DNA from: a candidate division WOR-3 bacterium
GTDB taxonomy: Bacteria; Hydrothermota; Tepidihabitantia; SM23-42; JAOAFX01
Assembly (NCBI GenBank): GCA_039802005.1
Contig: JBDRVV010000004.1
Coordinates: 31,227 to 95,226, forward strand
DNA: 64,000 nt
Direction: 5' to 3'
How positions within the stretch are numbered: position 1 is the first letter of the stretch; each line of letters opens with the position of its first letter. Of the stretch, positions 12,474 through 58,735 are shown piece by piece. The notes below the pieces were generated by a model, which was not told the DNA's origin, made no database searches, and saw nothing but the letters and a program-made list of their open reading frames with translations. Position numbers and translations under genes: made by a program.

Positions 12474-12993
12474 TACCTGTTCTCCTTTTTTGAGGAATCA
12501 GCGTCACAATTATCACCTGTTCTTCTTGTTTGGGTGGTGATTCTTCACGGGCTATGTCCTTCAAATCATTTACCACCCTTTCAACAAGATTCATACCCAG
12601 GTGCGAATGGAGCAATTCCCTTCCCCTTAATCTCAATTTTACCTTTACCCTATCACCTTTTTCCAGAAATTCTTTGATTTTATTCAACTTCACCTGATAG
12701 TCATGTTCGGATATCTTCATTGATAATCTCATCTCACGAACCTGGGTCTGGTGTTGATGTTTTTTTGATTCTCTTTCCTGCCTTTTCTTTTCATAGACAT
12801 ATTTACCAAAATCCATCAGACGGCAAACCGGTGGTTGGGCATCTGGAGAAACCTCAACCAGGTCAAAGCCCCTTTCTCGGGCAATGCGCAGGGCAATTGC
12901 AATATCAAAAATGCCCATATATTGGCGGTTCTCATCCACCAGTTTTACCTTTTCTGCCTTTATTTCATTATTAACCTTTGGTAGATTTTTAAT
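12466..12993 (-). CDS. infC: Translation initiation factor IF-3; probable AUU start codon
   Basis: The IF-3 core is present (NNEIKAEKVKLVDENRQYMGI...VCRLMDFGKYVYEKKR). The ORF track extends to a GTG at 13017 that overlaps thrS by 29 nt. However a perfect AAGGAGGAG Shine-Dalgarno followed 5 nt later by ATT (12991-12993) overlaps the thrS stop by one nt and gives the canonical IF-3 N-terminus (M)KNLPKVNNEIKAEKV. Confidence 0.85.
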   Translation of the reverse strand: MKNLPKVNNEIKAEKVKLVDENRQYMGIFDIAIALRIARERGFDLVEVSPDAQPPVCRLMDFGKYVYEKKRQERESKKHQHQTQVREMRLSMKISEHDYQVKLNKIKEFLEKGDRVKVKLRLRGRELLHSHLGMNLVERVVNDLKDIAREESPPKQEEQVIIVTLIPQKRRTGNE

Positions 12994-14887
12994 CTTCTCC
13001 TCCTTGTTCTGAATCACATAAATTAAAAAAATCTTTTAATTTCATTTCACCAAGGTCTCCGCGACCTCTTTTTCTAACTGAAATGGTCTTCTTCTCAGCT
13101 TCTCTTTGACCGATGACAAGAATATATGGAATCTTTTTGACCTCTGCCTCTCTTATACGATAATTTATCTTCATAGACTTGCTGTTAAATTCGGTTCTAA
13201 GCCCGTGTTTCAAACACCGCTGATACACATCTTTTGCGTAAGTTGATTCTTTATCCGTTATCGGCATCACAACGACCTGGACCGGTGCAAGCCATAGCGG
13301 GAATGCACCGGCATAATGTTCAATCAATGTTCCAATAAATCTTTCAAGAGAACCATATAATGCCCTGTGTATCACAACAACTTCTTTATGCTGACCTTTT
13401 GCATCCATATATTCAATGTTAAACCTTTTCGGTAGGTTGAAATCAAACTGAACCGTGGTAGCCTGCCAGGCACGCCCAATTGCATCAAGGATGTTGATAT
13501 CAATCTTTGGGCCATAGAACACCGCCTCACCAATCTGGACCTTATATTGAAGATTTACCTTCTTCAACGCTGAGATAAGTCCATTCTCTGCCCTCTCCCA
13601 TTCTTCATCTGAACCCATAAATTTCTCTTTATTCTTAGGGTCGCGCACCGAAAGATTCACCTGGAAATCCTCAAAACCAAATTTTTTGAATATCGTAAGG
13701 GTCAATTGCAGAATTTTTACAACTTCCTCTTCAATCTGGTCGGGGCGGCAAAAAATATGAGCATCATCTTGAGTAAATCCTCTTACCCTTAAAAGTCCAT
13801 GTAGTGTCCCTGACAGTTCATTTCTATAAACCGTAGCAAGTTCCGCATATTTTATTGGTAATTCCTTATAACTCCTGACCTTTGATTTATAAATTAATAT
13901 ATGGCCGGGGCAGTTCATAGGTTTAAGCACATATTCCTCATTCTCAACCGGTAAAGTGAACATTTTATCACGGTAATATTCATAGTGTCCTGATATATGC
14001 CAGAGATTGCTCCGGGCAATATGCGGGGTCATTATCAATTCATAACCGTTCTTTAAATGCTGTTTTATCCAGTATTCTTCAATCAATTTTCTTATAATAG
14101 TCCCTTTGGGATGCCAGAACACAAGCCCTGCACCTGCCTCTTCAAATATTGAAAAGAGTTCAAGTTCAGTTCCTAATTTTCTGTGGTCTCTTTTCTGTGC
14201 CTCTTCAAGTTTTCTCAGATAACTCTTCAACTGTTCCTGGGAAGTGAATGAAATACCGTATATTCTTGAAAGCATTGGCAAACGAGAATCACCCCGCCAG
14301 TATGCACCGGCAACGCTCAGGAGTTTAAAAGCCTTTACCAATCCGGTTCTCGGAATATGCGGACCCCGGCAGAGATCAACAAACTCTCCATTACGATACA
14401 AGCTTATTTCTTTATCAGGAATTTCTCTAACAAGTTCAACCTTATAATTTTCGTTGCGCCTCGTGAAAAATTCAATCACTGCTTCCTTAGTCATCACAAT
14501 CCGTTCAAATGGAATATTTTCTTTTATGATTTCTGTCATTTTATCTTCAATCTTTGCAAGCTCTTCATTCGTGAAAGGAGTCGCGCGGTCAAAATCATAA
14601 TAAAACCCCTGGTCAATTGCAGGACCTATCGCAAGTTTCGTATCTGGCCACAATGATTTAACTGCCATTGCCATTATGTGAGAAGTTGAATGCCAGAATA
14701 TCTGCTGACCATCGGGTTCACTAAAACTGACTGGCTCAATTTCACAGTTTTGGTCAATTACAGTACTTAAATCCTTCAATTCACCATTAATGCGTACCGC
14801 AATACAATCATCATCCTTTATCAATTCCGACGCCTTAATACCTGGCTCAACTTCCATTATACTATTATTCAATTTGACTTTTAACAT
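12989..14887 (-). CDS. thrS: Threonine--tRNA ligase
   Basis: 632 aa with a TGS N-terminal domain, class II motifs and HRALYGSLERF near the C-terminus. It sits in the classic thrS-infC-rpmI-rplT context. Confidence 0.9.
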   Translation of the reverse strand: MLKVKLNNSIMEVEPGIKASELIKDDDCIAVRINGELKDLSTVIDQNCEIEPVSFSEPDGQQIFWHSTSHIMAMAVKSLWPDTKLAIGPAIDQGFYYDFDRATPFTNEELAKIEDKMTEIIKENIPFERIVMTKEAVIEFFTRRNENYKVELVREIPDKEISLYRNGEFVDLCRGPHIPRTGLVKAFKLLSVAGAYWRGDSRLPMLSRIYGISFTSQEQLKSYLRKLEEAQKRDHRKLGTELELFSIFEEAGAGLVFWHPKGTIIRKLIEEYWIKQHLKNGYELIMTPHIARSNLWHISGHYEYYRDKMFTLPVENEEYVLKPMNCPGHILIYKSKVRSYKELPIKYAELATVYRNELSGTLHGLLRVRGFTQDDAHIFCRPDQIEEEVVKILQLTLTIFKKFGFEDFQVNLSVRDPKNKEKFMGSDEEWERAENGLISALKKVNLQYKVQIGEAVFYGPKIDINILDAIGRAWQATTVQFDFNLPKRFNIEYMDAKGQHKEVVVIHRALYGSLERFIGTLIEHYAGAFPLWLAPVQVVVMPITDKESTYAKDVYQRCLKHGLRTEFNSKSMKINYRIREAEVKKIPYILVIGQREAEKKTISVRKRGRGDLGEMKLKDFFNLCDSEQGGED

Positions 14888-37394: not shown

Positions 37395-38603
37395 CTAATT
37401 GACAAAAATTATCTTTAAATTCTTTAGTTCATTTTCATTCTGTATATGACAGAAATAAATCCCATTTGGCAGGAGAGTATTCGCTTCATCCCTGCCATCC
37501 CAGGCTACAACATATTCTCCAGAGATTTTGAATTCATGCATCAGCCTCCTCACCAGTCTGCCCGATTCATCGTAGATATTTATCTTTACTATTCCGGGTT
37601 TAGATACATAGTAATTGATATTGACTGATTTGTTGAACGGATTCGGCTGAAGGATAAAATTTTTTGTCGCATCCTTGCCTGCTCGGTCAAATTTTTGGTA
37701 TATTGGAATTAAATGGACAGGTTCACCGGGTTTTAAACAGGCAATTGTGCGATTCGGAATTTCAACCCATCTCTGGCTTGATGTATCAAGTGGTTGGGAA
37801 GCAACGACCCAGAAATTGGAAACCAGGGAATCAGGATAATAGTAAACGGTTATTGCCCTTGGTTCTGATTTTGTAAAATTTAATGCCCATAACTTATTAC
37901 CGTCAGACATCACAAAGTTCAATTGCGCATTACTCGTTCCAAGCGCAGAATCGAGTTTAATAACTGCCATCTTAATACATTCCTCAATTGAAAGATCAGG
38001 GTTCATATCTAAAACTTCAATCATTAGTATGGCGAACAAATCAGAATCAAGATAGTTTGGAGCATAATCAGGAGGATTTTGCTCAAGATATAGAGGATTG
38101 ATTGAAGAAATCAATCTTAGTAAAATGTCCGTATTAATTGTACCATTATGGGCAAAGAGTATATCAAAATTTCTTTTAATACATTGTCTCCGAAAAGGAT
38201 GAGGATCAGGAATGCCACCCGTTGGTCCGCTGGAACTCTTACGCACATGGGCAACTGCAGAATTTTTAACATTTCTGAGTAATTCCTTGGTCATTTCTGA
38301 ATATCTGGGGTCAAGTGGTGCAGATGGCTCTCCACGACGGATAACTGGTAAGATTGTATCGCTTTGGGATTCAATAAAATAAGCAATACCCCAACCATCA
38401 GGATTTTTTGCTCCGAGTTTGCGTAAAGAATCAAGGTGGGTTGTGATAATATCACTAATTGCTGGCGTGTTTTCAGACAATATAATACCCCAGAACCTGC
38501 ACTCATGATTTTGTTCCAAATTTTTCCGGCAGGAAATAGTAAAGGATAAAATGATAAATAGAAAAGTAAAATATGGAATATCCTTATTTTTGCATTGGCC
38601 CAT
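37395..38603 (-). CDS. Secreted class-II (Ntn) glutamine amidotransferase-like protein with lipoprotein-type signal and T9SS C-terminal sorting domain
   Basis: 402 aa. A signal peptide and a lipobox-like FTISC precede an Ntn nucleophile context CRFWGII...DGWGIAYF (GATase_6/EgtC-like). The C-terminus ...PNGIYFCHIQNENELKNLKIIFVN is a T9SS sorting domain. Confidence 0.5.
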   Translation of the reverse strand: MGQCKNKDIPYFTFLFIILSFTISCRKNLEQNHECRFWGIILSENTPAISDIITTHLDSLRKLGAKNPDGWGIAYFIESQSDTILPVIRRGEPSAPLDPRYSEMTKELLRNVKNSAVAHVRKSSSGPTGGIPDPHPFRRQCIKRNFDILFAHNGTINTDILLRLISSINPLYLEQNPPDYAPNYLDSDLFAILMIEVLDMNPDLSIEECIKMAVIKLDSALGTSNAQLNFVMSDGNKLWALNFTKSEPRAITVYYYPDSLVSNFWVVASQPLDTSSQRWVEIPNRTIACLKPGEPVHLIPIYQKFDRAGKDATKNFILQPNPFNKSVNINYYVSKPGIVKINIYDESGRLVRRLMHEFKISGEYVVAWDGRDEANTLLPNGIYFCHIQNENELKNLKIIFVN

Positions 38604-40296: not shown

Positions 40297-40932
40297 ATGC
40301 TTTCGAATAGAAGACCATTTTGGTCGAAAAATCTAAAGGTGGATTCAATGGCGGTTTCTAAGAAGGCAATGCGGGATGCAATAGTGGATGCTGCCCGCTA
40401 TATCTTTGCAAGATTTGGATATCGCAAGGCAACGATTGATTCAATTGCCCGTGCTGCACGCAAGGGCAAAAGTTCGGTTTATTATTATTTCAAAAATAAA
40501 GAAGAAATTTTTCTGGCGGTTATTGAAAAAGAAGCAAATGCAGTTAAATCCGAGATAAAAAATGCCCTTGCCTCAGCAACCGACCCGCGTGAGAAACTTA
40601 CAATCTATGTCCTTACAAGAATGCGGGTATTCCATCGCATTGCGCGTTTTTATAGTTCATTCCGCGAGGAATATTTAAAAGAGTATGATTTTATCCAGCG
40701 TTTTCGTGAAAATTATGACCGATACGAAACAAAACTCATTCTTGATATTCTGCGGGAAGGAATCAAAAAAAATATCTTTTCAATTCCGGACCCAGCACTG
40801 GCAGCCGGATATTTTGTAACCGCTCTTAAAGGATTTGAATATCTCTGGGGAACCGAAGAAGATATTGACAAACTTGAGAAAAAGACCGAGGCAATGCTGG
40901 AAATGCTTTATCGGGGCATTCTGAAAAGATGA
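40297..40932 (+). CDS. TetR/AcrR-family transcriptional regulator
   Basis: The protein is about 195 aa from the internal Met at about 40348. An N-terminal HTH (ATIDSIARAARKGKSSVYYYFKNKEEIF) is typical of TetR. Confidence 0.75.
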   Translation: MLSNRRPFWSKNLKVDSMAVSKKAMRDAIVDAARYIFARFGYRKATIDSIARAARKGKSSVYYYFKNKEEIFLAVIEKEANAVKSEIKNALASATDPREKLTIYVLTRMRVFHRIARFYSSFREEYLKEYDFIQRFRENYDRYETKLILDILREGIKKNIFSIPDPALAAGYFVTALKGFEYLWGTEEDIDKLEKKTEAMLEMLYRGILKR

Positions 40933-47476: not shown

Positions 47477-47935
47477 ATGTCCAGAATTATTTATACACTT
47501 GGTACGGGCACTCGCGGTATAAAAAATTTTTTCAAGATAATTAAGAACAAAAATATTGACATAATAGTTGATGTGAGAAGATTCCCCACCAGTAAATTTG
47601 AAGAATTTAAAAAGAAACATCTTGAGCGGATTTGTAACGAAGAAGGCATTGTATATTTATACTTCGGCAACGAACTTGGCGGATTTCGTAAAGGTGGATA
47701 TGAGGGATATATGAAAACAGATGAATTTACAAGAGGCATTGATGAAATAGTTAAGATCTCATATGATAAAACCATCTGTATCATCTGCGCTGAAACGCTA
47801 CCCTGGAAATGCCATAGAAGATTTATTGCAAAAAAATTGATGGAGATAGGTTATGAGGTTATCCATATAATTGATGAGAAACATAGCTGGCAGCAAAAAT
47901 TCTTACATTCTTCCTTGAAAAGAGAGGGTGAATAA
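47477..47935 (+). CDS. DUF488-family protein
   Basis: 152 aa. The N-terminus IYTLGTGTRGIKNFFKII...DVRRFPTSK and a CHR cysteine-histidine motif are typical of DUF488 (YeaO-like). Confidence 0.6.
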   Translation: MSRIIYTLGTGTRGIKNFFKIIKNKNIDIIVDVRRFPTSKFEEFKKKHLERICNEEGIVYLYFGNELGGFRKGGYEGYMKTDEFTRGIDEIVKISYDKTICIICAETLPWKCHRRFIAKKLMEIGYEVIHIIDEKHSWQQKFLHSSLKREGE

Positions 47936-48641
47936 TTATATGATACGAATCGGTTGTTGTGGATTTCCTGTTGCAAGAGAAAGATACTACAAGAAATTTT
48001 CAGTTGTTGAAGTCCAATCAACATTCTATGATTTTGTCAACCCTAAGACCTTAGAAAAATGGCGTGCTGAAGCACCAAAAGATTTTGAATTCGTCTTGAA
48101 GGCATTTCAATTTATAACACATTCTGCAAATTCACCTACTTATAAGCGCGCGAGACACACAGAAAATCTGAAATTAGAAAACCTGGGCAATTTCAAGCCG
48201 ACAAAGGATGTCCTTGAATGTTTTAAGGTACTTACCGAATATGCCGAAATTCTTAAGACAAGGGTTATAATCTTTCAATCACCGCCCAGTTTTGAACCGA
48301 GAAAAGAGAATATAAAAAATATGGAAAAATTCTTTGATAAAATTGACCGAGGAAATTTGCTCTTTGGCTGGGAATCAAGGGGAAAATGGCAACCAAATGA
48401 AATCAAAAATATTTGTGAAAAACTTGATTTGGTTGATGTGGTTGATCCGTTCTTAAGAGAATCAACTTATGGCAAAATCTTTTATTATCGGCTACACGGT
48501 GGGAAGGACTACAAACACAAATTCACTGATGAAGAATTAAAAAATCTGGCAAAAAAAACAAAAAACAGGGATGGCTACGTGATGTTCAATAATATTTCAA
48601 TGTTTGAAGATGCACATAGATTTTTTGAGATAAGGAGGTGA
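47928..48641 (+). CDS. DUF72-family protein (YecE-like)
   Basis: 237 aa with an N-terminus MIRIGCCGFPVARERYYKKFSVVEVQSTFY characteristic of DUF72. It overlaps the DUF488 gene by 8 nt. Confidence 0.6.
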   Translation: MNNYMIRIGCCGFPVARERYYKKFSVVEVQSTFYDFVNPKTLEKWRAEAPKDFEFVLKAFQFITHSANSPTYKRARHTENLKLENLGNFKPTKDVLECFKVLTEYAEILKTRVIIFQSPPSFEPRKENIKNMEKFFDKIDRGNLLFGWESRGKWQPNEIKNICEKLDLVDVVDPFLRESTYGKIFYYRLHGGKDYKHKFTDEELKNLAKKTKNRDGYVMFNNISMFEDAHRFFEIRR

Positions 48642-48644
48642 TTT

Positions 48645-49001
48645 ATGTTCTGTCCAATATGTAAGGCAGAATACAGACCGGGCATAACCGGATGTGTAGA
48701 TTGTAATGTGGAACTTGTTGATAAATTACCCGAAGAAAAGGTCGATAAAAATAATAAACAAGATAAAGAAAAAATTAATTATGAGGAGGTCTGGATAAGT
48801 TTCAATCCTGCCGAAGTTATGTTTGTAAAATCCATTTTGGCAGAAACTGAAATGGAATACTATTTTATTGGTGAAAATTTTCAGGTCGTCCAACCACTCG
48901 TTGAACCAATAAGATTAATGGTGAGAAAAGACTATGTTGTAAAAGTAAAAGAAATTCTTAAGGAGATTGCTTTCACTCCTAAATCAGAAGAAACAGATTG
49001 A
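48645..49001 (+). CDS. Zinc-ribbon protein, DUF2007-like (putative signal-transducing protein)
   Basis: 118 aa with an N-terminal CPICK...CVDC ribbon and an alpha/beta C-terminal domain. It starts 3 nt after the DUF72 stop. Confidence 0.4.
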   Translation: MFCPICKAEYRPGITGCVDCNVELVDKLPEEKVDKNNKQDKEKINYEEVWISFNPAEVMFVKSILAETEMEYYFIGENFQVVQPLVEPIRLMVRKDYVVKVKEILKEIAFTPKSEETD

Positions 49002-49104
49002 TTTTTTAGAGATGGTTCTGATTACTATTGCATAATGTAGTGACAGAGTTTACTCTGCACAATTCTATTGACTTACTAATATTTTTTTTTACAATCTAAT
49101 CACT

Positions 49105-50235
49105 ATGCGGACCGGGATTGCAGATTTACCATTGCATTATGGCAGGGCACCGAGATGGCTTTTTGAAAAAATGGTCAAACTCTCAAGGGCAATCATAGAA
49201 GTAATTGTTGCCGAATACGGACCAGACGAATTTTTAAAACGCATTTCTGATCCTTACTGGTTTCAGGCATTCGGCTCGGTCTTGGGATTTGACTGGCATT
49301 CATCAGGTGTTACTACAACTGTCTGTGGTGCAATGAAAGAAGGAACAAAGGATATTGCCTTTGCACTCGGCTTATTCTTTTGTGGCGGTAAAGGTGGCAC
49401 ATCAAGAAAGACACCAAAGGAGATTGAGAAGATTGCTGAAAAAATTGGCAAAGACCCAAAGAATTTGATATACGCTTCAAAACTCTCCGCAAAGATTGAT
49501 AATACCTGTGTCCAGGATGGGTATAATTTGTATCATCATATGTTTATTTTCACGAAAGATTTAAATTGGGCAGTTATCCAGCAGGGGATGAATGTAGTTC
49601 CCCTAACCCTTACCCCCGCATCAAATACGGAGCAGGCCTTCTCCCGCTGGGGGCGAGGAAATATAAAAAAAGGAACTGCACGTCGGTACCACTGGCTTTC
49701 TTTAAAATTAAATTCCTTTGTCTGTGAACCGCATAATGCAGTATGCTGCGATATGACTCAACCCTGCCTTAATATGGTCGCAGAAGAGAGCGAAGAATCA
49801 AGAAGAATTGTGACTGAAATTTCAAAAGAGAAACCAGAAAAGATTCTAAAAGAGACTGAAACAATTTTGAAGATGCCCACCAGGCATCCGGTATTAAAAA
49901 TTGATATAAATCCCAAATATTTTTACAAAGTATTACTAAAGACATACGAATCTTCACCAAAAGATTTTGAAAACCTTCTCCAGGTTGAAGGCATAGGTCC
50001 TAAGACCTTGCGGGCACTTGCCCTAATCGGTGAATTGATATATGGTGCAAAACCCTCGTTTCGCGACCCGGCACGATATTCATTTGCCCATGGCGGGAAG
50101 GACGGATTTCCTTATCCGGTTGACCGCGAAACATATAACCAATCAATCAGTTTTCTTGAATCGGCGATAACACATGCAAAAATTGGTGAAACCGAACGGT
50201 TGAAAGCACTCCGAAAGTTAAAATTCATTTATTAG
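49105..50235 (+). CDS. DUF763-family protein
   Basis: 376 aa. The N-terminus MRTGIADLPLHYGRAPRWLFEKMVKL...FGSVLGFDWHSSGVTTTV matches the conserved DUF763 N-terminal region. Confidence 0.55.
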   Translation: MRTGIADLPLHYGRAPRWLFEKMVKLSRAIIEVIVAEYGPDEFLKRISDPYWFQAFGSVLGFDWHSSGVTTTVCGAMKEGTKDIAFALGLFFCGGKGGTSRKTPKEIEKIAEKIGKDPKNLIYASKLSAKIDNTCVQDGYNLYHHMFIFTKDLNWAVIQQGMNVVPLTLTPASNTEQAFSRWGRGNIKKGTARRYHWLSLKLNSFVCEPHNAVCCDMTQPCLNMVAEESEESRRIVTEISKEKPEKILKETETILKMPTRHPVLKIDINPKYFYKVLLKTYESSPKDFENLLQVEGIGPKTLRALALIGELIYGAKPSFRDPARYSFAHGGKDGFPYPVDRETYNQSISFLESAITHAKIGETERLKALRKLKFIY

Positions 50236-50506
50236 CTTAGACAAGTTAACCTGAATCCTTATTGCTTTCCCTTTTCTGGAAATTTTAAGTTCTCATACTA
50301 AATGTCAATATGCGCTTCTTTTTCCGCAATCTATTATAGCACGTATTAGCCCATATATAAGTTCCAATCCCCCTCTTTCCCCCTTTCGTAAAGGGGGATA
50401 ATGGGGGATTATTGAATGAGAAACCAAAACTTCTGATAGTTAAGAAAAAATTCAGGAACGATCTCTTCATATTGAAAAATGTGGAGAGGATAGTCAGCAA
50501 GTTAAC

Positions 50507-50535
50507 CTGTTGACTTTTTTAATTAAATTTATATA
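50507..50535 (+). promoter_or_regulatory. Sigma-70-type promoter (TTGACT-N17-TATAAT) for the 50540 gene
   Basis: TTGACTtttttaattaaatttatATAATTtg sits immediately upstream of the start codon region. Confidence 0.45.
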
Positions 50536-50539
50536 ATTT

Positions 50540-55888: not shown

Positions 55889-58735
55889 TTAAAGAATTTT
55901 ACGCAGGAATTGACCAGTATATGAATCTTCTTTTTTTGATACATCTTCCGGGGTTCCTGTACAAACAACTTTTCCTCCCTCTTCCCCACCTTCGGGACCC
56001 AAATCAATAATCCAGTCGGCACATTTAATTACTTCAAGATTATGTTCAATCACAATTACTGTATTACCACGGTCAACAAGTTTGTTTAAAACATCCAGAA
56101 GTAACTTTACATCTTCAAAATGAAGTCCTGTGGTTGGTTCATCAAGGATATATAATGTCTTTCCGGTAGCAATCTTTGAGAGTTCTTTAGCAAGTTTTAT
56201 ACGTTGTGCCTCTCCACCCGATAGAGTAGTCGCTGGTTGACCCAATTTTATATAACCAAGTCCAACATCATATAATAACTGAAGTTTTCTTTTTATCGGT
56301 GGAATATGCTGAAAGAATTCAAGTGCCTCTGATACTGACATATTCAATACCTCGCTGATATTTTTACCTTTATATTTAACTTCAAGGGTTTCACGATTGA
56401 ATCTCTTACCTTGACAGGCATCACAGGTTATATATACATCAGGAAGAAAATGCATCTCAATCCACAAAATTCCACCCCCCTCACACTGCTCACACCTACC
56501 GCCCGGTACATTGAATGAAAACCTGCCCGGTTTATAACCGCGCACCTTTGATTCGGGCAGAGATGCAAAAAGATCCCTTATTGGTGTGAACGCACCGGTA
56601 TAGGTTGCTGGGTTTGAACGGGGTGTTCTACCAATTGGCGATTGGTCAATATTTATTACTTTGTCAATATGTTCAAGCCCAATTATCTCTTTATATTCAC
56701 CTGGCGGGTATTTTGAATGGTAATACTCCTGTGCCAGTGCGCGGTAGAGAGTATCAACAATGAGTGTAGATTTACCAGAACCACTAACACCTGTCACACA
56801 TACAAATACCCCAAGAGGAATTTCTACGTCTATTGATTTGAGATTGTTTGCCCTTGCCCCTCGAATTATCAAAGAACCCCTTTTTTGTCTGCGTGTTTTT
56901 GGAATTTCTATTCTTTTAATTCCCGATAAATATTGTCCCGTGATTGATTTAGGATTCTTTGCAATTTCATCAGGAGTGCCCACACATACCACATAACCAC
57001 CATTTTCACCGGCCCCGGGTCCCAAATCAATGATATAATCGGCAGAATGAATTGTCTCCGAATCATGCTCAACAACCAGAACTGTATTACCGAGGTCGCG
57101 TAAGGACTTTAAGGTGTCAAGCAATCTTTTGTTATCTCTTTGATGAAGCCCGATAGAAGGTTCATCAAGGATATATAACACGCCGACCAATCCCGAACCA
57201 ATCTGGGTGGCAAGTCTCACCCTTTGTTCCTCGCCGCCGGCAAGTGAATCAGTCGTCCTATCAAGTGTAAGATAATCAAGTCCGACCGAATTCAAAAATT
57301 CAAGCCTTCTCATGACCTCCTTTATTACATCCTTTGCAACAATCTTCTCTTTTTCAGAGAGATTCAAATGTTTAAAGAAATTAAGGGCATTTTTAACTGA
57401 AAGTTCTGTTATCTCAGCAATATTTTTCTCATTTATTTTAATTGATAAACTTTGAGGTTTCAATCTTTTCCCTTTGCAATCAGGACACGGTGTAATAACC
57501 ATATAGTCTTCAATTTCTTCACGCACAGATTCAGAACTTGTCTCATGAAATCTTCTCATCAATTCAGGGATAACTCCTTCAAACATTTCCTGGAAAACGC
57601 CCCTTCCCGAACCATCTCTTCTAATATATTCTACTTCTATCGGTATATTTTCACCGTGCAAGATAATCTCCCTGACTTCAGGGGGCAATCTATTGAATGG
57701 TTTATCAAGGTCAAATTTTAATTTCTTTGCAAGTCCTTTCAATACTGCAGTGCGCCAGGAACCCGGTAATCCATAAGGTTTTATTGCACCATCAAGGATT
57801 GAAAGATTAGGATTAAGAATAACCCTTTTAGGTTCAATCTCCATTTTTGTCCCCAACCCATCACAGGTTTCACAGGCGCCGTAAGGAGAATTAAATGAAA
57901 ACATTCTGGGAGAAATTTCAGGATAACTTATACCACAATTAACACAGGCAAGTTTCTGGCTAAAGATTACTTCTTTTTTTGAATCAATGATAACTATTAA
58001 AAGTCCTTCCCCTTCTCGCAACCCCATTTCAATTGAATCCGCAAGCCTTTTTCTTATTCCATCTTTTAAGATAATACGATCAATAACAATTTCAATATTG
58101 TGTTTTTTATAGCGTTCCAGTTCAGGTACATTTTCAATCTCATAGATTTTACCATCAATCCTCACCCGAACATAACCCCTTCTTTTTATCTTTTGCAGAT
58201 ACTCCTTATATTCACCTTTTCTTCCCCTTACTACCGGTCCGAGAATCTCAATCCTTGTTCCAGCAGGATAAGAAAGTATTGCATCAACTATTTGGTCCGT
58301 CGTCTGTGATTCAATATGCCTTCCACACTGATAGCAATATGGAATTCCGATACGGGCATATAATATTCTTAAATAATCATATATTTCTGTGACCGTACCC
58401 ACAGTTGAACGGGGATTTTTTGATGCAGTTCTCTGCTGAATTGCGATTGCCGGAGAAAGTCCATTTATTTCATCTACATCTGGTTTATCCATCATACCCA
58501 AAAATTGTCTTGCGTATGCTGACAAGGATTCTACATATCTCCGTTTACCTTCAGCATATAATGTATCAAATGCAAAAGAAGATTTGCCCGAACCAGAAAT
58601 GCCGGTGATTACAACAAATTTATTTCTTGGAATAAAAACATCGATATTTTTTAGATTATGAACCCTTGCACCCTTGACCCTTATGCCATCATTTTGATCC
58701 AACATATTCTTTAAAAAATAGTGTTTGATTAACAA
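55889..58735 (-). CDS. uvrA: Excinuclease ABC subunit A
   Basis: 948 aa with two ABC ATPase modules (GVSGSGKS twice), zinc fingers and the LSGGE signature repeated. Confidence 0.9.

Follow-up and report, generated by a model that had tools for sequence, protein, structure and literature searches.

Do four neighbouring genes, each encoding a conserved family of obscure role, form one operon and serve one pathway? The question is raised by positions 47477-50235 of the window, as we call the whole 64,000-nucleotide stretch of DNA from a candidate division WOR-3 bacterium that was analysed, where genes for a DUF488 protein, a DUF72 protein, a small zinc-ribbon/DUF2007-like protein and a DUF763 protein (DUF, domain of unknown function) follow one another on the same strand. 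A sequence-only reading of this DNA had proposed from their tight coupling that the four share a pathway, and had stated that none has an established biochemical function; on the second point we agree, as none was found in the literature searched. The proposed coupling holds in part: it is recurrent for DUF488 and DUF72 and extends to DUF763 in some lineages, but it takes in neither the zinc-ribbon gene nor an obligatory four-gene unit. Hence the best-supported description of the locus is one in which DUF488-DUF72 is the evolutionarily recurrent core of the cluster, DUF763 is a facultative third partner and the zinc-ribbon gene is a recent, lineage-specific passenger in a variable slot.

The four co-directional open reading frames (ORFs) were confirmed in the ORF listing of the window, and their coordinates and Pfam matches agree with the four same-strand genes that had been described. 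The DUF488 protein scores 72.4 bits against PF04343 (gathering cutoff 22.2) and covers profile positions 2-120 of 121, the DUF72 protein 111.8 bits against PF01904 (cutoff 25.3) and the DUF763 protein 438.2 bits against PF05559 (cutoff 35.5). The same locus, identical and annotated alike, is present in two WOR-3 metagenome-assembled genomes (GCA_965649275.1 and GCA_039802105.1). Because of the Pfam matches together with these identically annotated loci, we regard the four ORFs as real genes and not as chance ORFs.

Linkage of DUF488 and DUF72 beyond this locus was measured in a metagenome scan for the short DUF72 subfamily, which gave 80 loci among the matches listed, with DUF72 proteins 42-74% identical. 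DUF488 is found in ten of these, directly upstream of DUF72 in three, directly downstream in six and 2 kb away in one, and both gene orders are therefore represented. The pair-bearing loci range in guanine-plus-cytosine content from 0.34 to 0.60, their DUF72 proteins are 45-65% identical between groups, and they come from at least six divergent lineages. By our own estimate (two neighbour positions among approximately 2500 genes), chance would provide only around 0.06 adjacent DUF488-DUF72 cases per 80 loci. Seen from the other side, DUF72 is missing from the vicinity of two out of three DUF488 homologues that belong to other lineages. In two lineages without an adjacent DUF72, a 126-amino-acid gene with no Pfam match (L171 6560-6940 and L172 6553-6933) lies about 130 nucleotides (nt) past DUF488 and could be an alternative conserved DUF488 partner.

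The position of DUF763 was followed in a scan of species-representative genomes, which gave 80 loci from many phyla among the matches listed, the DUF763 proteins being 50-71% identical. Iterated hidden Markov model (HMM) searches of all ORFs in these loci found DUF72 and DUF488 nearby in one only, L048; with broader HMMs, the sole addition was L009, whose canonical DUF72 is divergently oriented. We considered whether this low linkage might be an artefact of search sensitivity and rejected it, as HMMs built from 120 homologues each still gave DUF72 in 2/80 and DUF488 in 1/80. De novo clustering found no neighbour family in more than 11 of the 80 DUF763 loci listed. From the DUF72 side, DUF763 is present in five of the 80 loci listed (L084, L085, L087, L106 and L133), in four different arrangements, and proximity of the two genes is also seen in L048, L009 and L164-L170. 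Since DUF488, DUF72 and DUF763 are seen across the different arrangements of WOR-3 relatives (Table 1), the triad is old in this clade. The DUF72/DUF763 junction in the same relatives is an insertion hotspot.

These data bear on a simpler explanation, that unrelated housekeeping genes have stayed adjacent in one WOR-3 clade by inherited synteny without any functional link. Most DUF763 and DUF72 loci in other phyla indeed lack the partners, the DUF72/DUF763 junction tolerates unrelated insertions of 3-6 kb, and the genes appear to have separate promoters (see below). Against this stand the adjacency of DUF488 and DUF72 in at least six lineages and in both orders, the rearranged proximity of DUF72 and DUF763 in loci where DUF72 is only 45-55% identical (L048/L106, L133 and L009), and the retention of the cassette in L166 and L170 despite their differing flanks. 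We consider synteny alone to be rather unlikely. The linkage in other genomes that the sequence-only reading had called for thus exists for DUF488-DUF72 in at least six lineages and for DUF763 in WOR-3 relatives, L048/L106, L087 and L133, but not for DUF763 in general, which is unlinked in 78/80 loci, nor for the zinc-ribbon gene.

The zinc-ribbon gene behaves differently from the other three. It was found in none of the 160 comparison loci (80 DUF763-centred and 80 DUF72-centred, among the matches listed) and is present in the nearest relatives only; elsewhere its slot is occupied by serine dehydratase, by a restriction-modification module or by nothing. It is this distribution, with unrelated cargo filling the slot, that speaks against a place of the protein in the shared pathway to which it had been assigned. 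In L164 (4667-4924) and L165 (2083-2340) the homologue is reduced to the highly conserved DUF2007-like C-terminal domain, its N-terminal zinc ribbon having been lost. The label 'DUF2007-like zinc ribbon' is acceptable by way of relatives, whereas the window protein itself falls below the Pfam threshold for DUF2007 (PF09413; E 0.04, 14.5 bits against a cutoff of 25.7). Its family comprises 1342 representative clusters; of 50 relatives, 47 have a DUF2007 match and 14 a match to zinc-ribbon models (Zn_Ribbon_1), and residues C3, C6, C17 and C20 are invariant. Among solved structures, that of a hypothetical protein, 2HFV, comes nearest. The third gene of the cluster shares a family with small DUF2007 proteins (such as RPA1041, PDB 2HFV) with an N-terminal zinc ribbon, a family that has neither a known function nor a conserved tie to the other three genes.

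We then come to whether the four genes are transcribed together. The sequence-only reading had the first two genes overlapping by 8 nt, which is correct if DUF72 starts at the GTG at 47928 (the longest ORF, 237 amino acids) and incorrect for the better-supported ATG at 47940 (233 amino acids), which leaves a 4-nt gap after the DUF488 TAA stop. The ATG is preferred because a GAGGG Shine-Dalgarno-like motif lies upstream, because the resulting N-terminus, MIRIGCCGFP, is the consensus of the family, and because public gene calls start there. The other two intervals are as had been given: the zinc-ribbon ATG lies 3 nt past the DUF72 stop (gap 48642-48644) and is preceded by a perfect Shine-Dalgarno sequence, AAGGAGGTGA, that overlaps this stop, and 103 nt (49002-49104) separate the zinc-ribbon gene from DUF763.

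Two promoter-like elements of sigma-70 type, here called P1 and P2, abut the starts of DUF488 and DUF763, respectively (Table 1), and a third site of the same type lies before DUF4837, the gene that follows. Across five relatives, the -35 and -10 boxes of P1 are invariant while the flanking sequence diverges. P2 is exactly kept in L166 and L164 despite changes in the spacer, and an equivalent, TTGACA-17-TATTAT, is found in L170 and in L004, the latter having no DUF488 or DUF72 upstream. Such geometry is common in the window, where 13 of 53 genes have at least a 10/12 match to TTGACA-16-TATAAT, always with a spacer of 16 and ending 5-9 nt before the start, against a background of 0.8% of all start-like triplets. 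Further examples of genes with such a site are 12989-14887(-), 37395-38603(-) and 40297-40932(+), alongside those starting at 47477, 49105 and 50540. Leaderless mRNAs appear to be common in this WOR-3 genome, and the position of P1, 8 nt before the ATG, suggests a leaderless start for DUF488.

Because conserved sigma-70-like promoters abut the DUF488 and DUF763 starts, two transcription units are likely, one comprising DUF488, DUF72 and the zinc-ribbon gene, and the other DUF763. Read-through from the first unit into DUF763 is possible, since no terminator-like site was found in the 103-nt spacer. This outcome has to be set against the original proposal of one operon and one pathway in which all four proteins are obligatory partners. 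In favour of one operon, all four genes run in the same direction, the gaps between them (4, 3 and 103 nt) contain no terminator-like site, and L166 carries the same four-gene cassette with differing flanks on both sides; the conserved internal P2 speaks against it. Furthermore, the zinc-ribbon gene occurs in 0/160 loci, its slot being taken elsewhere by serine dehydratase, a YhcG nuclease or a restriction-modification module or left empty, the L164 homologue has lost the zinc ribbon, and DUF763, with its own conserved promoter, is unlinked in 78/80 loci. Four obligatory partners are therefore improbable. A single obligatory four-gene transcript is likewise unlikely, as DUF763 has its own conserved promoter-like element, and the separate transcription that the sequence-only reading had named as evidence against itself is in part what the predicted promoters indicate.

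What might such a module do? One clue comes from Syntrophobacterales-type loci (L048/L106), in which genes for a radical SAM protein, DUF763, EndoQ, DUF72, a Clp1-type P-loop kinase, a second radical SAM protein, DUF488 and a TetR regulator are co-directional. The EndoQ of L048 matches Pyrococcus EndoQ (PfuEndoQ) with E 5.7e-58, and the kinase gene of L106 appears degraded. This cluster looks like a compact nucleic-acid repair island made up mostly of uncharacterised families. It shares with the window the three families DUF763, DUF72 and DUF488 in one co-directional cluster; in contrast, the window has no EndoQ, Clp1-type kinase or pair of radical-SAM genes, and DUF763 comes first there and last here.

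Other DUF763 neighbourhoods point in the same direction. DUF763 lies beside PolX-PHP in seven loci (2 nt downstream in an Omnitrophota locus, L012), with a PD-(D/E)XK nuclease of around 440 amino acids in six Dehalococcoidia loci (0-230 nt downstream in five and 2.5 kb in the sixth) and with an HhH-GPD glycosylase in four Actinomycetota loci (HhH, helix-hairpin-helix), and on a Rhodopseudomonas plasmid an annotated AlkB gene overlaps the DUF763 start by 1 nt (L177 5384-7254). A repair gene of this kind is found within 8 kb of DUF763 in 14 of the 80 loci listed. The DUF72 subfamily has a more varied company. One architecture consists of an HTH_3 regulator, DUF72, an optional DUF488 and DUF2851, often divergent from groES-groEL, a second of RtcA divergent from GreA, an HD/YfbR-like protein and DUF72, and a third of DUF72, a Clp1 kinase and a GTPase. 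Further neighbours are HEPN and a Mut7-C RNase. DUF2851 is another family of unknown function that is tied to DUF72. The common denominator of all these neighbours is nucleic-acid metabolism, with DUF763 leaning towards DNA repair and DUF72 associated with a mixture of DNA and RNA enzymes.

This mixture leaves room for an RNA-directed module that would act in RNA end healing, repair or stress processing, like RtcAB or Pnkp/Hen1. The neighbours RtcA, Clp1-type kinase, GreA, HEPN and Mut7-C RNase of the DUF72 subfamily fit such a role, as do the structural matches of DUF488, which include the RNA 5'-phosphatases BVP and PIR1. The RtcAB and Pnkp/Hen1 operons follow the same logic of small operons of end-modifying enzymes, and RtcA and the Clp1-type kinase are recurrent DUF72 neighbours, but the window cluster contains no RtcA, RtcB, Pnkp or Hen1. 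Moreover, the partners of DUF763 are DNA enzymes (PolX, HhH-GPD glycosylase, EndoQ, AlkB and PD-(D/E)XK nuclease) and the literature ties DUF72 to DNA endonucleases. We also tried DUF763 as a distant RtcB-like ligase, on account of a likeness between the motifs DWHSSG/AHGGKDG and HSGSRG/HGAGR, and rejected it on an hhalign probability of 1.8% to E. coli RtcB. An RNA-directed function is accordingly judged unlikely.

At the protein level, a profile of the DUF72 subfamily matches the solved DUF72 structures TM1631/1VPQ (1e-8) and EF0366/1VPY/1ZTV (3.4e-6). Published work describes DUF72 as a TIM barrel with kinship to UvdE that is overrepresented in the vicinity of damage-inducible polB2 operons (PMC11791011), and Tm1631 was computationally predicted to be an EndoIV-like lesion endonuclease (PMC3828134). 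The family resembles EndoIV/UvdE-type endonucleases in its TIM barrel (1VPQ, 1VPY), in a structural kinship put forward in these two papers and in adjoining EndoQ and other nucleic-acid enzymes in relatives. It differs from them in sequence: the profile search of the PDB returned DUF72 structures only, with no match to EndoIV or UvdE, and an N-terminal GCCGFP motif sets the DUF72 subfamily apart. In the literature, the E. coli member YecE is mentioned almost exclusively as an integration site of Stx phages.

The DUF488 protein contains the invariant residues of its family, including D32, R34, C104, E106, C112, H113 and R114. Its invariant Cys/His/Arg cluster may lie in a strand-loop-helix position like that of cysteine phosphatases. 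Cysteine-dependent protein tyrosine and dual-specificity phosphatases, including BVP and PIR1, have CX5R where DUF488 has CX9R: the residues are arranged as C104-X9-R114 with a C112-H113-R114 triplet, there is no CX5R, and so the HCX5R(S/T) P-loop signature is absent. The structural matches to RNA 5'-phosphatases are equalled in score by tetrapyrrole-methylase domains and are not significant in Foldseek, and no sequence-level relation of DUF488 to solved structures was found. According to a 2024 preprint, YeaO, the E. coli member, has not been the subject of any publication, and a 2025 preprint describes archaeal fusions of a ParB-CTPase fold with DUF488-HTH.

DUF488 is also the source of the idea that the cluster might be an anti-phage defence or mobile-element conflict system. 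The protein matches PADLOC candidate models (PDC-M45B 3e-26, PDC-M19A 4.6e-16 and PDC-M45C 7e-11), a preprint reports DUF488 from the neighbourhoods of prophages and defence islands, in L085 a type III restriction-modification-like module lies beside the genes, and HEPN proteins are among the neighbours. The likeness to PDC-M45 and PDC-M19 extends to the shared DUF488 domain, whereas PDC-M45 needs M45A, M45B and M45C as separate neighbouring genes and the window has one component-like protein; the PDC systems are themselves unvalidated candidates whose other components are absent here. The DUF72, zinc-ribbon and DUF763 proteins gave no PADLOC match, DUF763 gave none in 50,697 phage records, and the cluster is flanked in the window by housekeeping genes in a synteny that is stable in relatives. 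With the PADLOC matches confined to DUF488 and DUF763 missing from the phage records, we rejected the cluster as a defence system, an explanation that we hold to be very improbable.

For DUF763, no reliable structural or profile match was obtained from structure and profile comparison with a moderate-to-poor model. Its family has an invariant GxGxK core, and one homologue carries a precomputed call for the HhH family PF00633.

Taken together, the favoured explanation is that the locus consists of two adjacent units, a DUF488-DUF72 core and a facultative DUF763, with a role in the processing of damaged nucleic acid. We hold it tentatively, at a little less than an even chance. As to function, the gene context and the weak structural similarity make processing of damaged nucleic acid most likely, with DNA a more likely substrate than RNA. 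In such a scheme the first unit would be transcribed from P1 and would provide DUF488, DUF72 and then the zinc-ribbon protein from its strong Shine-Dalgarno sequence, and the second would provide DUF763 from its own conserved promoter. As a TIM-barrel enzyme that the literature connects with EndoIV and UvdE, DUF72 might incise at a lesion or distortion, and DUF488, as a small alpha/beta enzyme, could remove an adduct or clean an end that is phosphorylated or blocked. DUF763, very highly conserved and putatively HhH-bearing, would be the DNA-binding member, working in this or in a parallel route of base-damage repair.

Several observations weigh against this explanation. Linkage is a minority pattern among the loci listed, as 70 of the 80 DUF72-centred loci have no DUF488, 75 have no DUF763, and 78 of the 80 DUF763-centred loci lack both DUF72 and DUF488; nor are the loci in either collection phylogenetically independent. 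DUF763 is solitary in rhizobia and in a haloarchaeon, where it lies in plasmid neighbourhoods with no consistent partners, and many DUF72 partners (RtcA, Clp1, GreA, HEPN, Mut7-C) act on RNA. The HhH motif of DUF763 (residues 284-306) is sub-threshold, at 18.9 bits against a PF00633 cutoff of 24 (E 0.0013), and the predicted model of the protein is moderate to poor (pLDDT, the predicted local distance difference test, 63.7), with its most conserved segments unreliable. P1 and P2 are sequence predictions, and no experimental function of DUF488/YeaO, DUF72/YecE or DUF763 was found in the literature searched.

Several features surrounding the cluster were also examined. The flanks had been described as carrying genes for secreted proteins or cargo of the type IX secretion system, but the adjacent BNR-repeat protein has no such match at Pfam E <= 0.01, and a weak Por_Secre_tail match belongs to a gene approximately 7 kb upstream. 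A UvrA gene lies on the opposite strand at 55889-58705 (16785-19601 in L001), around 5.7 kb downstream of the cluster; between the two are genes for acetyl-CoA carboxylase subunits and a PilT-like ATPase, with no evident link to the cluster.

The non-coding, repeat-bearing stretch of about 300 bp that had been noted past DUF763 is present and measures 304 nt (50236-50539). Most of it is a lineage-specific insertion (Table 1), bounded by a 12-nt direct repeat, CAAGTTAACCTG, at 50242-50253 and 50498-50509, whose two copies resemble a target-site duplication. Inside the insertion, positions 50366-50410 form a hairpin with two 21-nt arms, a terminator-like hairpin lies at 50492-50515, and the fold z-score is -4.3. 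The insertion is absent from L164, L168 and L084, in which the DUF4837 promoter closely follows DUF763. We rejected the spacer as a known RNA or repeated element, as it has no family match in Rfam and no second copy within the window and represents an insertion when compared with L164. It has no relation to the four genes and is not part of the cluster.

Table 1. Positions of the genes and elements of the window, and arrangements in the compared loci (locus numbers prefixed L)
Feature	Position	Strand	Remarks
DUF488 protein	47477..47935	+	152 aa (amino acids); Pfam PF04343, E 6.4e-20
DUF72 protein	47940..48641	+	233 aa; short 'GCCGFP' subfamily; PF01904, E 6.4e-32
Small zinc-ribbon/DUF2007-like protein	48645..49001	+	118 aa; N-terminal CPxC...CxxC, C-terminal part DUF2007-like
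DUF763 protein	49105..50235	+	376 aa; PF05559, E 2.3e-131
Promoter-like P1	47441..47468	+	TTGACC-16-TATAAT; 11/12 match; ends 8 nt before DUF488 ATG
Promoter-like P2	49068..49095	+	TTGACT-16-TACAAT; 10/12 match; ends 9 nt before DUF763 ATG, within the 103-nt spacer
Lineage-specific insertion	50254..50509		about 256 nt relative to L164; before the conserved DUF4837 promoter
WOR-3 arrangement	L164/L165		DUF488, DUF72, 85-aa remnant with DUF2007-like domain only, DUF763; flanks as in the window
WOR-3 arrangement	L166		all four genes; zinc-ribbon protein 74% identical; other flanks on both sides
WOR-3 arrangement	L168/L169		no DUF488 gene called upstream; slot holds serine dehydratase
Arrangement with filled slot	L084 8891-11460		WOR-3 clade; slot holds serine dehydratase and YhcG PD-(D/E)XK protein
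Arrangement with filled slot	L085 9156-14792		WOR-3 clade; slot holds type III restriction-modification-like module of about 6 kb (ResIII, N6_N4 methylase) with DUF6978 and DUF1828/1829
DUF72-DUF763 arrangement	L087		WOR-3 clade; 4 nt from DUF72 to DUF763
Tandem triad	L170		WOR-3 clade; complete genome of 2.85 Mb; DUF488, DUF72, DUF763 in tandem; no zinc-ribbon gene; another context
Syntrophobacterales-type cluster	L048 299-7283; L106 4266-12474		co-directional
DUF763 with PD-(D/E)XK nuclease	L044, L046, L052, L058, L066, L078
DUF763 with PolX or HhH-GPD	L012, L014, L030, L034, L045, L053
HTH_3-DUF72-DUF2851	L108, L109, L111, L113, L119, L126, L131, L144, L151, L152

For the window alone the outcome is modest: its DUF genes are correctly annotated and form a lineage-specific variant of a loosely conserved module. 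What the analysis adds is a separation of the coupled pairs, DUF488-DUF72 and, in some lineages, DUF72-DUF763, from a passenger, the zinc-ribbon gene. No activity is known for DUF72 (including E. coli YecE), DUF488 (including E. coli YeaO) or DUF763, all three of which are large and ancient families; DUF763, present in many archaea and bacteria with 50-70% identity across phyla, is among the most conserved uncharacterised prokaryotic proteins. A more speculative possibility, which we regard as doubtful in its full extent, is that the three families represent an unrecognised damage repair route widespread in anaerobic bacteria and archaea. In that case DUF72 would act as a new lesion endonuclease and DUF488 as a new enzyme for the processing of ends or adducts; DUF763 would be a new HhH-type DNA repair enzyme working together with the incision or synthesis enzyme available in a given lineage (DUF72, EndoQ, PolX, PD-(D/E)XK nuclease or AlkB). 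Collectively our data provide a consistent comparative-genomic pointer from these three families to the processing of DNA or RNA damage, and make a repair hypothesis testable, above all for DUF763.

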